The translations under genes were made by a program, and so were the position numbers. Below are positions 1 through 2,216 of a DNA stretch of 2,216 nucleotides, one piece after another. The notes beneath the pieces are model-generated. The model did no database searches. It saw nothing but the letters and a program-made list of their open reading frames with translations, and was not told the DNA's origin. The stretch lies in contig CH709150.1 in the NCBI GenBank assembly GCA_000004695.1, forward strand, positions 1 to 2,216, read 5' to 3'. Origin of the DNA: Dictyostelium discoideum (Eukaryota). The first letter of the stretch is position 1. Every line of letters starts with the position of its first letter.

Positions 1-171
1 TGAATTGGTATTAGATGAGAACATAGGTTCTTTCATGAATCTTGTAAAGGCTAAGGAAATGTTGTTGATTTGATCCTCCATTGATTTCATTCTTAAATCA
101 AAGGATTCAGCACTATTAGAGGCAGAGGTACTACTACTAGAGGCTTCATTATTATTAACAGTGGTAGACAT
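1..171 (-). CDS. 5' partial CDS (N-terminal 57 codons) of an Asn/Ser-rich hypothetical protein. It continues beyond the window start.
   Basis: Reverse complement of 1-171 reads ATG TCT ACC ACT GTT AAT AAT AAT GAA GCC ..., i.e. MSTTVNNNEASSSSTSASNSAESFDLRMKSMEDQINNISLAFTRFMKEPMFSSNTNS, with no stop. An in-frame TAA lies two codons upstream of the ATG (RC of 175-177), so this is the first Met. The context is A-rich (aaaatATGt). Third-position A/T codon bias fits an AT-rich eukaryote. The ORF track misses it because it runs off the window edge. Confidence 0.5.
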   Translation of the reverse strand, partial: MSTTVNNNEASSSSTSASNSAESFDLRMKSMEDQINNISLAFTRFMKEPMFSSNTNS

Positions 172-581: not shown

Positions 582-932
582 TTATTCATAATATATATAT
601 ATATATGATAATATAAATACGTTTGATAGTGGATAAGTGCTTGAATACTTGATTTGCATCCCATATCTCAACCTACCAGTCATAATTCTTGTAATGAATA
701 GATCATTAACAATATCAGTTTGATTCCTAAGGAGTAACAACTGATTCAACATAGAGCGATTACCGTTTATTGTGGAGAAGGCTAACGGAGGTTTGTGCTT
801 GAACAGATGTGTAAGATAATCCATGAAAACAACTAAAGTAATGTTTGCTGGATTCAAAGAGTTCAAAGTTTGGTCAATACTTCTTGGAATGTTTCCAGTA
901 TTTGAGGAAACATGTGACGATGATAACGACCT
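582..932 (-). CDS. Hypothetical open reading frame of 116 sense codons with no ATG at its 5' end (first Met at codon ~36). Possibly cargo, or a pseudogene fragment.
   Basis: The minus-strand frame is open from the TAA (RC of 933-935) to the TAA (RC of 582-584). It reads RSLSSSHVSSNTGNIPRSIDQTLNSLNPANITLVVFMDYLTHLFKHKPPLAFSTINGNRSMLNQLLLLRNQTDIVNDLFITRIMTGRLRYGMQIKYSSTYPLSNVFILSYIYIYYE. The 'M' in the ORF track at 864-866 is actually a TTG (Leu). GC is ~35-40% and CTG/CCG/CGC/GGG/AGG/CTC codons appear, which differs from the flanking gene usage. The last 7 codons only read through the (AT)n tract. Confidence 0.3.
   Translation of the reverse strand, partial: RSLSSSHVSSNTGNIPRSIDQTLNSLNPANITLVVFMDYLTHLFKHKPPLAFSTINGNRSMLNQLLLLRNQTDIVNDLFITRIMTGRLRYGMQIKYSSTYPLSNVFILSYIYIYYE
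595..617 (+). repeat. Direct repeat copy 1: atatatatatatgataatataaa. This is the inner-end motif of TIR-L.
   Basis: Identical 23-mer at 1140-1162. Both are followed by a[t/a][a/g]cg. Confidence 0.8.
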
Positions 933-1045
933 TTAAAATCACCTTAAAAATCACCTTAAAAATTGCTTAAAAATTTAATTTAAAGAAAATTTTAAAGGCA
1001 TTTTTAAATATCTTAAAAATTACCTTAAAAATTACCTTAAAAATG
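929..1045. repeat. Degenerate 12-bp minisatellite (A/G)(C/T)CTTAAAAAT(C/T), about 7 copies in two blocks, immediately upstream (on the minus strand) of the 582-932 ORF.
   Basis: acctttaaaatc 929-940, accttaaaaatc 941-952, accttaaaaatt 953-964, gcttaaaaattt 965-976, then a 33-bp spacer, then atcttaaaaatt 1010-1021, accttaaaaatt 1022-1033 and accttaaaaatg 1034-1045. Confidence 0.8.
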
Positions 1046-1057
1046 AATTTTTTAAAC

Positions 1058-1118
1058 GCGGCTTTAAATTCAATTTAAATCCAATTTAAATAAACTTTGC
1101 TTTAAATTTGCTTTAAAG
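1058..1118. repeat. Second short-repeat cluster with a TTTAAA core: (g/t)gctttaaa(t/g) x3 and caatttaaat x2.
   Basis: ggctttaaatt 1060-1070, caatttaaat 1071-1080, ccaatttaaat 1081-1091, ttgctttaaat 1097-1107 and ttgctttaaag 1108-1118. Confidence 0.7.
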
Positions 1119-1139
1119 GTGGATTTTTCTTTGCTGTGA

Positions 1140-1162
1140 ATATATATATATGATAATATAAA
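1140..1162 (+). repeat. Direct repeat copy 2: atatatatatatgataatataaa, internal to the element.
   Basis: Exact match to 595-617. Together the two copies bracket module A (619-1139). Confidence 0.8.
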
Positions 1163-1171
1163 AGCGATTAG

Positions 1172-1197
1172 CCTAGGAGATCTAGAAGTGTTTAAAC
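1172..1197. other. Cluster of overlapping 6- and 8-cutter palindromes resembling a cloning linker: AvrII CCTAGG, BglII AGATCT, XbaI TCTAGA, PmeI GTTTAAAC.
   Basis: cctagg 1172-1177, agatct 1178-1183, tctaga 1181-1186 and gtttaaac 1190-1197, all read directly. The cluster sits exactly at the junction between direct-repeat copy 2 and module B. Confidence 0.6.
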
Positions 1198-1780
1198 TTA
1201 TTGGCTGGGTTACTTTATTGATCGGCATCCCCTTTATTATATTCAATAAACAACTACAAAAATTAACCCATTGTTCCGAATAAGTCCATGGGAAGAACTC
1301 ATTTATTACTTGCTTAGACTAAGCCTGCTTATAGAGTATAGGATTTGGCTTGTTGTCTGATCATTATGGGGAAATAACCATTGGCGCTCTATCTGCACCG
1401 CTTATGGGAAGCACCCTATTTTGAGTACTTTTCGACCTACTTCCATCAGACATTGGCATAACCTTATGTGTATCTGTACCAACTAAATCTATCGCTATCG
1501 AAGTTATGTTTGAATTTGATGCGGGTCCAAATTGACCTCCAAACTCCGCAACAGGTAGCGTCAATTCCTACCCCCCTATCAGGATGCTAGGCAGCTTATT
1601 AACCCCAGAACAGAAAAAATCATGAAGGATAACCGAGCGATCCCATACCAGTAGGTTTTGGGCACCACATTCAATGCAAATTGGAGTATAATCGACCTGC
1701 TATTTGTGAAGGCCCCAACGCTTTTCATATTATAAAAAAATCTTACGTTTCTCCCTCAGATGCTAAAGTGAAGCCATAAA
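1198..1780. other. Module B, a ~580-bp non-coding island of roughly 40-50% GC. Candidate structured ncRNA or decayed foreign cargo.
   Basis: Stops are dense in all six frames; the longest ORF is 66 aa on the minus strand. GC was spot-counted at 37% for 1301-1360 and 50% for 1541-1600, against <20% in the flanks. No 3-nt periodicity or internal repeats were recognised. No rRNA, 5S, U6 or tRNA cloverleaf motif was recognised. Confidence 0.35.
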
Positions 1781-1878
1781 TTAAAAATTTAATTTATTAT
1801 ATTAAATATATATATATATATATATTATGAATAACATTTATTTATTAGAATTTCCCAAATATATAAGATAATTTTTTA

Positions 1879-1896
1879 GAATGTTCTAAAACATTC
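1879..1896. promoter_or_regulatory. Heat-shock-element-like array in TIR-R: GAAnnTTCnnaAAnnTTC.
   Basis: GAAtgTTCtaaaacaTTC. GAA at 1879-1881, TTC at 1884-1886, aAA at 1889-1891 and TTC at 1894-1896. This is the mirror copy of the TIR-L site. Confidence 0.5.
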
Positions 1897-1934
1897 GAAG
1901 AAAAAAAAAATTTCGAAAGAAAAGTAAAAAATTT

Positions 1935-1942
1935 CCACGTGG
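1935..1942. promoter_or_regulatory. CCACGTGG palindrome (CACGTG E-/G-box core) within the unique central block of TIR-R. It can pair with downstream ccaagtgg as a hairpin.
   Basis: ccacgtgg(ggcgataattatg)ccaagtgg has 7/8 complementary arms. This 45-bp unit replaces the two subrepeats present in TIR-L. Confidence 0.3.
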
Positions 1943-2057
1943 GGCGATAATTATGCCAAGTGGCAAAAACAGTTTTGTGAAATTTTTAAGAAAATAAAAA
2001 AAATAAAAATAGTGGCACTAAAAACTAAAACAATTTGATATATGGAATTCCAACTAT

Positions 2058-2073
2058 GGGCGGGTGGGATGGG
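2058..2073 (+). other. Canonical G-quadruplex motif GGG-C-GGG-T-GGG-AT-GGG, 7 bp outside the right terminus of the element.
   Basis: gggcgggtgggatggg has four G3 runs with loops of 1, 1 and 2 nt. It is extremely unusual in >80% AT surroundings. Confidence 0.8.
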
Positions 2074-2126
2074 ACTAATATATATAAATTTTTAATATGA
2101 AATATAATTTAATAAATTTTTAATCT

Positions 2127-2155
2127 ATTTTATCATATATATATATATTATGAAA
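2127..2155 (-). repeat. Extra inverted copy of the TIR inner-end motif (ttcataat(at)n gataa) located outside the element in the right flank.
   Basis: 2127-2155 is ttttatcatatatatatatattatgaa. Its reverse complement, ttcataatatatatatatatgataaaa, matches 585-613 (ttcataatatatatatatatatgataatat). It is also a direct repeat of atatatatatattatgaa inside TIR-R (1813-1832). Confidence 0.6.
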
Positions 2156-2216
2156 TTTGGACTACAGTATTTAAGAAACCACCAGATTTTTCACCAATGA
2201 TTCTTTTATCGTAGAA
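2148..2216 (-). CDS. Possible 3' end (last 22 codons plus TAA stop) of a minus-strand gene that enters from beyond the window end.
   Basis: RC of 2151-2216 reads TTC TAC GAT AAA AGA ATC ATT GGT GAA AAA TCT GGT GGT TTC TTA AAT ACT GTA GTC CAA ATT TCA, then TAA (RC of 2148-2150). This is FYDKRIIGEKSGGFLNTVVQIS*. Codon choice (GGT, AGA, TTA) matches the left-flank gene. The open stretch is only 22 codons, so evidence is weak. Confidence 0.3.
   Translation of the reverse strand, partial: FYDKRIIGEKSGGFLNTVVQIS

Follow-up and report, generated by a model that had tools for sequence, protein, structure and literature searches.

The 23-bp sequence ATATATATATATGATAATATAAA, which is found twice in direct orientation in an unplaced contig of Dictyostelium discoideum AX4, is the known outer end of the DIRS-1 terminal repeat and not its inner end. 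The two copies are independent copies of one element terminus, and they represent neither a duplicated target site nor the boundary of a cassette. The window, that is, the whole stretch of DNA analyzed here, covers the entire 2216-bp contig and is a mosaic of nested transposon fragments. With a probability of roughly 0.9, we regard it as a nested DIRS-1 mosaic in a repeat cluster rather than as one TIR element. The source of the contig is a DIRS-1-rich repeat cluster of the centromere type.

DIRS-1 (Dictyostelium intermediate repeat sequence 1; GenBank M11339), reportedly described by Cappello et al. in 1985, is the founding tyrosine-recombinase retrotransposon; its LTRs are inverted, and it has an ICR. 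The motif is textbook DIRS-1 terminus and ICR sequence, and as such it is already known and ordinary. The value of the check is negative, in that two LTRs facing outward will not be entered in catalogues as a new TIR transposon whose modules can be exchanged.

The 23-mer and its four occurrences

The exact copies lie on the plus strand at 595-617 and 1140-1162, at a spacing of 545 bp, and their identity extends over no more than 23 nt. When up to three mismatches are allowed, a third copy appears on the minus strand at 2124-2146, and the 23-mer was matched at this threshold in none of 200 dinucleotide-preserving shuffles. The tail GATAATATAAA alone is much weaker evidence, since with up to one mismatch it gave at least two matches in 15 of the 200 shuffles. 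Two inverted relatives are present, namely (AT)10 followed by TATGAA at 1806-1831 and TTATC(AT)7TATGAA at 2130-2154. On these points the initial annotation of the contig was accurate: the exact direct repeat is confirmed, the inverted relatives lie within 1-2 nt of where they had been placed, and the fourth motif does overlap the stop codon of the right-flank gene, as the stop of a minus-strand ORF (2148-2150) is inside it. Its view that the motif is a specific element-end sequence and more than a bare (AT)n microsatellite also holds.

The side of the terminal repeat on which the motif lies was read from a published primer and from the flanks of other copies. The reverse complement of the 23-mer is the first 23 nt of the published DIRS-1 left-LTR cloning primer. 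Recurrence was searched in a Dictyostelium sample of ~136 kb in eight loci, where (AT)n followed by GATAATATAAA (up to two mismatches in the tail) occurs 18 times, and the same pattern occurs three times in the window. Where it stands after gttattcata, which is the LTR context, a different flank follows every time, and where it stands after the recombinase stop codon, which is the ICR context, ttaaaaatttaattt always follows. Because the sequence past GATAATATAAA is different in each of nine other LTR copies, it is flanking DNA. The left LTR of DIRS-1 has TTTATATTATC(AT)nTATGAA as its 5′ terminus, and the motif, which had been taken as the inner end of a TIR, is placed at the outer terminus by the published primers and the variable flanks alike. 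The left-LTR terminus, its complement in the ICR, and the (AT)nTATGAA core of the right LTR together account for all four occurrences of the motif. Comparison of the left and right ends gave no clear consensus target for DIRS-1 insertion beyond A/T richness.

Terminal repeats, ICR, and coding ends of two DIRS-1 copies

The following identities, orientations, and boundaries were observed directly. A long inverted repeat is formed by 483-606, which pairs with 1810-1933 (95%), and by 305-367, which pairs with 1981-2043 (83%). It had been interpreted as the ends of a single TIR transposon at ~305-2043, but the repeats are LTRs that come from two separate DIRS-1 copies, whose bodies extend beyond the window to the left and to the right. 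Identity of the copies to the full-length DIRS-1 used as comparison (positions 978-5567 of locus L004) is 75-93%.

The left LTR of copy 1 occupies 290-617 on the minus strand, with its outer end at 617 (±2), where the first 23-mer (595-617) is found, and its inner end at an EcoRI site (290-295). A spacer (172-289) separates it from DIRS-1 ORF1 (GAG), of which the first 57 codons (1-171, minus strand) are present; the frame continues beyond the left end of the window. The ORF at 1-171 is identical to DDB_G0294172 (partial, AX4), and eight more repeated copies are found on DIRS-rich contigs. Positions 1-617 align in a single piece to positions 623-1 of the L004 DIRS-1 at 93.4% identity. The published left-LTR forward primer TTTATATTATCATATATATATATATATTATG matches from 617 to 587 without errors. 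With up to six errors allowed, the published left-LTR inner primer is not matched at 290-315; compared with the primer, the window contains an insertion there.

The right LTR belongs to copy 2 and occupies 1781-2051, again on the minus strand, with its outer end at 1781, (AT)10 at 1806-1825, and an EcoRI site at the inner end (2046-2051). Both published right-LTR primers are located, the outer one at 1781-1812 (four errors) and the inner one at 2025-2050 (two errors). In total, three of the four published LTR primers lie at the expected places, and sequence identity to the DIRS-1 reference is judged here indirectly, through these primers. Positions 1781-2216 align to the last 530 nt (positions 4588-4059) of the full-length DIRS-1. 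The terminal repeats are inverted and non-identical, as in the DIRS order: the left-type outer end carries GATAATATAAA, whereas the right LTR carries a specific extension of ~25 nt at 1781-1805. A right-ITR extension of 27 bp has been described in DIRS-1 (PMC4482531).

An ICR of ~88 nt lies at 2067-2154 on the minus strand. Its first ~33 nt (2122-2154) hold the fourth copy of the motif, and the rest is complementary to the right-LTR end; the published layout of the DIRS-1 ICR is 33+55 nt (PMC7192593). The reverse complement of the ICR agrees with the left-LTR start at 32 of 34 positions, and it also aligns with the right-LTR end. The fourth motif copy is not outside the element, as had been proposed, but is the ICR and internal to the right-hand DIRS-1 copy. 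The context of a YR stop, then (AT)nGATAATATAAA and ttaaaaatttaattt, is also found in seven other copies. The ORF that ends here (2148-2216, minus strand, stop at 2148-2150) contributes the last 22 codons and the stop of the copy 2 tyrosine recombinase, and the equivalent position in loci L001, L003, and L004 is the end of genes with PF00589 (Phage_integrase). The full homologous genes in these three loci carry PF00078, PF17917/PF17919, and PF00589 (RT/RNase H/Phage_integrase). The window contains the N-terminus of ORF1 (1-171), a fragment of the recombinase N-domain (622-929), and the recombinase C-terminus (2148-2216), and the RT lies outside it. A Pfam search of the window ORFs gave nothing usable, and a search for tRNAs was negative both in the window and in L008, a second assembly described below.

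Compared with DIRS-1, the window shows no difference in kind. Both have inverted LTRs of ~270-330 bp with EcoRI sites at the inner ends, and the left-LTR terminus, TTTATATTATC(AT)nTATG, is identical to the published primer. The right-LTR extension of ~25-27 nt, the 88-nt ICR, which directly follows the recombinase stop and is complementary to the two LTR ends, the location of ORF1 downstream of the left LTR, and the clustering with other DIRS-1 fragments are likewise the same. Of DIRS-1 itself, the window holds no more than the ends of two copies, the stub of one further LTR, and a recombinase-gene fragment with a deletion.

The segment between the direct repeats

The segment 618-1139, named module A in the initial annotation and considered there as a unit bounded by a duplicated site, consists of two unrelated pieces and is not a cassette. 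The left piece (622-929, minus strand) is a fragment of the DIRS-1 tyrosine-recombinase ORF with the N-terminal SAM-like domain. It has an internal deletion of ~193 bp at 866/868, and its 3′ side is truncated by the insertion of copy 1. There are 24 Dictyostelium homologues of this fragment, one of which has PF13495, and the fragment maps inside the RT/RNase H/Phage_integrase genes of L001, L003, and L004.

The right piece (930-1138) is the right-terminal ~210 bp of a non-autonomous TIR element with the TIR CACAGCRAAGAAAAAWCCACC, and it ends with ...TTGCTGTG at 1138. Subterminal tandem repeats of 11-12 bp, the “minisatellite” of the initial annotation, are included in it. A CRISPR-repeat match in this minisatellite (Rfam, E≤1) was rejected as a chance match, as its 24.6 bits fall below the gathering score of 47. 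A complete copy of the small element with both TIRs, ~790 bp in length, is present in L008 (3492-2712). Seven other copies share the conserved end ...GCTGTG and differ from one another in what comes after it, and ten termini with variable flanks were found. Like non-autonomous, MITE-like TIR transposons, the element is short, has TIRs of ~40 nt (CACAGCRAAGAAAAAWCCACCTTTAAAGC...) and subterminal short tandem repeats, lacks coding capacity and any long ORF, and is dispersed in multiple copies with differing flanks; these copies sit in DIRS-rich loci. It may belong, as a short member, to one of the Dictyostelium DDT or thug families. At its insertion in L008 there is a candidate 10-bp duplication, AATATATATA, the site of which lies inside an (AT) tract, and inspection by eye of the terminus pairs in L001 and L006 found no matching duplication.

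The second 23-mer and the L008 assembly

The second 23-mer (1140-1162, minus strand) is the outer-end stub of another DIRS-1 LTR, called copy 0 here, and is 100% identical to positions 23-1 of the full-length DIRS-1. The stub is 23-24 nt long, running from 1162 to 1140. Its origin can be followed in L008, another D. discoideum assembly, which matches 929-2216 of the window at 98.9%. Positions 1-928 are absent from L008, where their place is taken by the small element in complete form and the body of an LTR. The arrangement in L008 is LTR body, complete ~790-bp TIR element, 23-mer, and module B (the DNA at 1163-1780). At the sequence level the order is ...aaataaatgttattgaatatatata, TIR element, aatatatatatatgataatataaa, and agcgatt..., and an LTR interrupted inside its (AT) tract is thus observed directly. 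The stub at 1140-1162 exists because the TIR element was inserted in the (AT) tract of the LTR and cut the end from the body. The stub-bearing LTR in L008 has an inner flank of the right-LTR type and an outer end of the left-LTR type, so that the designation “left LTR of copy 0” is only approximate.

Since L008 keeps 929-2216 beside a different left neighbor, the 545-bp unit is not a mobile cassette. This is also the outcome of the survey of other copies that the initial annotation had proposed: in the second assembly the right part is shared and 1-928 is replaced. Of its three readings of the repeat, the first was correct in that a nested insertion is involved, but not in that a duplicated site delimits a cassette. 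The second took the motif as a recombination site used for module exchange; the motif is indeed among the sequences thought to act in end-joining and recombination of a tyrosine-recombinase element. The third assumed an (AT)n-associated hotspot that seeded the TIRs. The (AT) tract at the DIRS-1 LTR or ICR end is a recurrent breakpoint or insertion point, which agrees with this reading in a weak sense, although not with the seeding of TIRs.

Alternative explanations

The original interpretation, a TIR DNA transposon at ~305-2043 with the motif at the inner TIR ends and module A as a cassette or nested insertion, would account for the long inverted repeat that flanks the region and for the exact 23-bp repeat that brackets 545 bp. 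It is nevertheless most improbable. The outward sides of the repeats continue unbroken into DIRS-1 ORF1 on the left and into the ICR and recombinase on the right, which are the inner sides of LTRs, and the true termini are the sides toward the middle of the window, whereas a TIR transposon would have its outer ends facing host DNA, with a target-site duplication. The motif side has variable flanks elsewhere and is placed at the outer end by the published primers. Module A is made of two unrelated fragments, L008 keeps 929-2216 without 1-928, and the composite unit is absent from the ~136 kb of eight Dictyostelium loci, where only 929-2216 recurs (in L008). Even less credible, to a nearly negligible degree, is the view that an AT-rich string recurs by chance at (AT)n microsatellites, given a sequence with 71% A+T. 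The 11-nt tail, with up to one mismatch, does recur at least twice in the 15 shuffles mentioned above, but the whole 23-mer is matched in none of the 200. Furthermore, 18 of the 102 strand-counted (AT)≥6 tracts in the 136 kb of Dictyostelium loci are followed by GATAATATAAA, and 14 of these 18 stand in an LTR or ICR context in a strict test. Besides these 14, LTR ends with variant sequence, one LTR end that abuts an ICR, and a stub appear among the matches listed.

Site-specific recombination would give the direct repeat another meaning: a circle with one end motif and module A would have been integrated by the DIRS-1 recombinase into an LTR terminus, with a core duplication like that of attL/attR. 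The DIRS-1 tyrosine recombinase is thought to integrate via the circle junction of these ends (PMC7192593), and L002 carries the motif twice in tandem at 20403-20453, where an LTR end abuts an ICR. The likeness to the attL/attR cores of phages and integrative elements consists in a short identical sequence at both borders and in a family that encodes a tyrosine recombinase. Here, however, the copies belong to two LTR ends, one of which was split off by an unrelated transposon, and therefore there is no sign that the intervening segment was integrated as a unit. The left neighbor of the second 23-mer is the precise terminus of another TIR element, the 23-mer in L008 is continuous with the rest of the LTR across this element, so that insertion in the (AT) tract explains the stub, and the first 23-mer is part of a complete, separate LTR. 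We consider such an integration very unlikely. An assembly artefact that joins the left half (1 to ~929) to the right half is a somewhat more serious concern, yet still unlikely; it would deprive the 545-bp spacing of biological meaning and would be compatible with the identity of the motif. In its favor, the contig is short (2216 bp) and unplaced, the second assembly corroborates 929-2216 only, and none of the other loci sampled has the joins at 929/930 and ~620. On the other hand, the breakpoint at 929/930 is not in sequence shared by the partners, as a repeat-induced mis-join normally would be, and the uniqueness of the joins is judged from only ~136 kb of other Dictyostelium sequence.

Proposed history of the nested mosaic

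The nested DIRS-1 mosaic is described here along the minus strand, and the order in which its insertions and deletions took place is inferred. The first part is the end of DIRS-1 copy 2, with the C-terminus of the recombinase, the ICR of 88 nt, and a right LTR that ends at 1781. The 618 bp of module B come next, and then the 23-24-nt outer-end stub of the copy 0 LTR. This stub is followed by the terminal 210 bp of the small TIR element, which had been inserted in the (AT) tract of the copy 0 LTR. Beyond it lies the recombinase-gene fragment, and finally the left LTR (from 617) and ORF1 of copy 1, presumably inserted in that fragment. The joins at 618-622 and 929/930 were found in no other locus of the ~136 kb sampled, and the history given for the left part is putative. 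As for function, it has been proposed in the literature that the ICR pairs with both LTR ends of an incomplete cDNA, by which full ends and the circle junction are rebuilt, and that the tyrosine recombinase integrates the circle (PMC7192593).

Nested and fragmented DIRS-1 is the normal content of Dictyostelium centromeric clusters. DIRS-1 prefers DIRS-1 as its insertion site, and later insertions heavily fragment the centromeric elements (PMC2665215). With the centromeric DIRS/DDT/Skipper clusters (Glöckner and Heidel, 2009; PMC2665215) the window shares strong fragmentation, DIRS-1 inserted in DIRS-1, interspersed pieces of DNA transposons, and the form of an unplaced repeat contig, whereas the 618-bp module B corresponds to no catalogued repeat, as far as checked.

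Module B and a transporter remnant

Module B (1163-1780, plus strand) is the 618-bp segment that separates the ends of copies 0 and 2; it is non-DIRS DNA with 40% GC. Its first part (1163-1283) holds the final 40 codons, with the stop, of a peptide transporter of the bacterial POT/PTR2 type. In a tblastn search, residues 378-417 of the EukProt protein P0035 (gene2956-3689_t), which has the domains PF00854 and PF07690, matched window positions 1161-1280 at 87.5% identity (E 6e-18). As a separate observation, module B is bordered precisely by a left-type end of DIRS-1 on one side and a right end on the other, which are the sequences joined in the circle junction.

The block is conserved at 98.9% in L008 and is thus present in two D. 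discoideum assemblies. It had no match in the 136 kb of DIRS-rich loci, nor, in a distant search mode, in plasmids, phages, or E. coli genomes, and the latter result makes vector or E. coli contamination unlikely. Six-frame pieces of module B, compared with the Dictyostelium loci and with 160 bacterial and metagenome loci, matched only at the transporter C-terminus, and the transporter peptide, searched as a degenerate DNA pattern, was absent from the metagenome contigs. No donor of the transporter was identified, since in GTDB genomes and JGI metagenomes the relatives of P0035 are no more than ~51% identical. A 67-aa minus-strand ORF of module B, searched with HMMER against the full library, gave P0034, a gene model on the same DNA, and weak matches to repetitive Ig-like/RTX proteins, which were rejected as compositional.

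It is very doubtful that module B, as the 3′ end of a POT transporter gene with a further ~500 bp, is a relic of foreign, Bacteroidota-like bacterial DNA that became fixed in the D. discoideum genome after being captured or carried by DIRS-1 tyrosine-recombinase recombination, instead of host DNA into which DIRS-1 was inserted twice. Considerably likelier, and perhaps a real if minority possibility, is that it represents a horizontally acquired gene destroyed by DIRS-1 insertion. The relic of a transporter gene, bounded precisely by DIRS-1 ends, may merit a look as a possible remnant of horizontal transfer.

The Repeated Motif Is a DIRS-1 Terminus

The 23-nt sequence ATATATATATATGATAATATAAA is found exactly at 595–617 and 1140–1162, spaced by 545 bp, and a third, inverted copy with 2 mismatches lies at 2124–2146. 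Recurrence of the 23-mer by chance is excluded, since none of 200 dinucleotide-preserving shuffles contained any match with ≤3 mismatches. The 11-nt tail alone is far weaker, with at least 2 matches (≤1 mismatch) in 15 of 200 shuffles. The direct repeat reported in the initial annotation is therefore real, and further (AT)n-containing copies (1806–1831 and 2126–2154) and a long inverted repeat (483–606 vs. 1810–1933 at 95%; 305–367 vs. 1981–2043 at 83%) are present where they had been placed. The gap in the inverted repeat (368–482 vs. 1934–1980) arises because a tandem duplication of about 51 bp at 391–458 (TTTTCGACC...CAA units, family D10) exists only in the left copy and is absent from the right one.

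(AT)n followed by GATAATATAAA, with ≤2 mismatches in the tail, was searched for in eight Dictyostelium loci and in the window, giving 18 and 3 occurrences, respectively. Save a few stubs or junctions, these fall into two contexts. In the LTR context, the motif comes after ...aaataaatgttattcata and is followed by a different flank in every case; it is therefore the terminus of DIRS-1. In the other context, it comes after ...gtccaaatttcata, with the recombinase stop codon, and is invariably followed by ttaaaaatttaattt..., that is, DIRS-1's internal complementary region (ICR). Published DIRS-1 LTR cloning primers (PMC4482531, S1 table) were then matched to the window. The left-LTR forward primer TTTATATTATCATATATATATATATATTATG matches 617→587 with 0 errors, and its first 23 nt are the exact reverse complement of the 23-mer. 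The right-LTR primers match at 1781–1812 (outer) and 2025–2050 (inner). The left-LTR inner primer has no match within 6 errors at 290–315, where the window has an insertion relative to the primer. The primer matches settle the motif as the outer end of the DIRS-1 LTR; with the variable flanks, they overturn its earlier reading as an inner TIR end.

DIRS-1 LTRs are inverted and non-identical, and the right one has a 27-bp extension (PMC7192593, PMC4482531). The first 33 of the 88 nt of the ICR are complementary to the 5′ end of the left LTR and the other 55 to the 3′ end of the right LTR (PMC7192593, PMC4482531). The window has an ICR at 2154→2067, the reverse complement of which aligns with the left-LTR start (32/34) and also with the right-LTR end. 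Thus, each copy of the motif can be assigned: 585–617 is the left-LTR terminus of a first DIRS-1 copy (copy 1), 1140–1162 is a stub of another LTR terminus, and in the right LTR of a further copy (copy 2) the (AT)n core is followed by the right-specific extension (1781–1805). The fourth overlaps the recombinase stop codon (2148–2150), as had been noticed, but it forms the L′ half of the copy 2 ICR, so that it lies within DIRS-1 and not beyond an element.

The Window as DIRS-1 Territory

Homology places the window in DIRS-1 territory. DDB_G0294172 (partial, D. discoideum AX4) is matched at 100% identity by the minus-strand ORF at 171→1. This ORF is repetitive, with 8 more copies on contigs that also bear copies of module A's (618–1139) minus-strand ORF. 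The latter ORF (622–929) codes for the SAM-like domain at the N-terminus of a tyrosine recombinase and has 24 Dictyostelium homologues, one of them with PF13495; the loci around them abound in genes for RVT_1, RT_RNaseH, and Phage_integrase domains. Relative to its homologues, the fragment lacks about 193 bp at 866/868 (…SIDQT|LNSLNPAN…). A homologous protein, P0019, has a different internal deletion.

A full-length DIRS-1-like copy (L004, 978–5567) has the order LTR, ORF1, RT/RNase H, recombinase, ICR, and LTR. Window 1–617 matches its first 623 nt in a single reverse-orientation alignment (93.4%) covering the left LTR, spacer, and ORF1 start, and 1781–2216 aligns to its last 530 nt. The two LTRs thus belong to different DIRS-1 copies whose bodies run out of the window on both sides, with 618–1780 between them. 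The feature is an already known one, DIRS-1 LTR termini and an ICR in a nested repeat cluster.

A Small TIR Element Accounts for the Second 23-mer

The "minisatellite" at 930–1138 makes up the last ~210 bp of a different repeat. Seven other copies share a conserved end, ...TTGCTGTG, beyond which their sequences are unrelated, and ten termini matching CACAGCRAAGAAAAAWCCACC were detected. The repeat is a non-autonomous TIR element of about 790 bp, possibly of the DDT or thug family, with ~40-nt TIRs (CACAGCRAAGAAAAAWCCACCTTTAAAGC...) and subterminal 11–12-bp tandem repeats. DIRS-rich loci commonly contain it, with further termini in L001, L002, L004, L005, and L006. A complete copy lies at 3492–2712 of L008, a 5.3-kb contig from another D. 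discoideum assembly that matches window 929–2216 at 98.9% over 1288 nt. In the interior of this copy (~3240–3180), gggattcgatcccccgaccctc...accattacacca resembles a tRNA T-arm/acceptor remnant by eye; ARAGORN predicted no tRNA in L008.

In window orientation, L008 reads ...gggaaattcaaataaataaatgttattgaatatatata | CACAGCG...(~790 bp, both TIRs)...GCTGTG | aatatatatatatgataatataaa | agcgattagcc.... There, the small element interrupts a DIRS-1 LTR inside its (AT) tract, leaving the last 23–24 LTR nt beyond it, with module B (1163–1780) directly adjoining them. A possible 10-bp duplication, AATATATATA, is seen at this insertion within the tract. AX4 shares the stub, the end of the element, and module B with L008, but left of 929 its element is truncated and fused to the recombinase-gene fragment, which carries the copy 1 insertion at ~618–622. 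The 23-bp direct repeat therefore represents two independent copies of one terminus. Module A dissolves into two unrelated fragments, the recombinase-gene piece (622–929) and the element end (930–1138), and is not a cassette.

Module B

Module B has 618 bp with 40% GC between a left-type and a right DIRS-1 end. Searches of 136 kb of DIRS-rich loci gave no match to it, nor did those of plasmids, phages, or E. coli. Its first 120 nt (remnant 1163–1283, plus strand) encode ...SLGDLEVFKLIGWVTLLIGIPFIIFNKQLQKLTHCSE*, which represents the last 40 codons and stop of a bacterial-type POT/PTR2 peptide transporter. This peptide shares 87.5% identity with the C-terminal end of P0035, a POT/PTR2-MFS transporter of 417 aa for which EukProt is the only source, and the homology begins exactly at the DIRS-1 end (1161–1163). 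In GTDB genomes and JGI metagenomes, P0035 has its best relatives among Flavobacteriaceae and other bacteria, with ≤51% identity. Module B contains codons such as GCG, CCC, GGC, and CTA, which are atypical of D. discoideum. Module B is kept in L008 (2689–2071, 98.9%); it is therefore genomic and no AX4 cloning artefact. It resembles what is left of a bacterial-type gene, with DIRS-1 ends on either side, and may stem from horizontal transfer. An AvrII-BglII-PmeI site cluster (1172–1196) is no polylinker, as it lies inside the coding remnant.

Origin of the Arrangement

DIRS-1 integrates by preference into copies of itself, and the elements in centromeres are described as "highly fragmented, mainly due to subsequent insertions" (PMC2665215). 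In assembled D. discoideum centromeres, DIRS accounts for ~49% and DDT for ~19% (PMC2665215). The nested, stub-bearing window fits these published descriptions. Part of the ends is missing from the DIRS-1 transcript, and the ICR pairs with LTR-end fragments of the cDNA, by which complete ends and a circle junction are regenerated (PMC7192593). Integration of the circle is thought to be carried out by the tyrosine recombinase, and deletion of the ICR abolishes retrotransposition (PMC7192593). From the anatomy and part boundaries shown in this analysis, we infer an order of events: DIRS-1 copies would have inserted on both sides of module B, the small TIR element would then have entered the (AT) tract of an LTR, the sequence would have been broken or deleted at 929/930, and copy 1 would have inserted into the recombinase-gene fragment.

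The initial annotation took the region for a TIR element, with an internal cassette as one possible reading. It was right to see in the motif a specific, recombination-related end sequence, but it read the architecture inside-out, and the model of a TIR transposon with a cassette is contradicted by LTR orientation, flank variability, L008, and the published primers. Once the small TIR element is taken into account, the 23-bp duplication requires no site-specific, "att-like" origin, and L008 speaks against one. The left half of this small, unplaced repeat contig may have been chimerically joined, but the identity of the motif is unchanged either way.

Breakpoints and Recombined Ends

Other stubs are cut at the same (AT) tract, at 9215 in L003 (joined to ORF1 interior) and at 9050 in L005, and in L002 (20403–20453) an LTR end abuts an ICR, with the motif twice in tandem. 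The (AT) tract of the DIRS-1 end is a recurrent breakpoint. At the sampled termini (9–10 left and 9 right ends), no target consensus beyond A/T richness was found, in agreement with the report that no specific DIRS-1 target is defined (PMC2665215).

At L003 14432 (minus strand), L005 9050, and L002 20403–20453, a left-type end motif directly adjoins a right-LTR end or an ICR. These junctions resemble circle junctions or tandem joins, which suggests that DIRS-1 recombines at, or inserts into, end or ICR sequences of its own. At L008 3860–3493 plus 2712–2690 and L001 9676–10155, a right-LTR-type inner flank (ICR, recombinase C-terminus) is combined with the left-LTR-type terminus GATAATATAAA. 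Such mixed-type LTRs could come from recombination between inverted LTRs, which would invert the interior.
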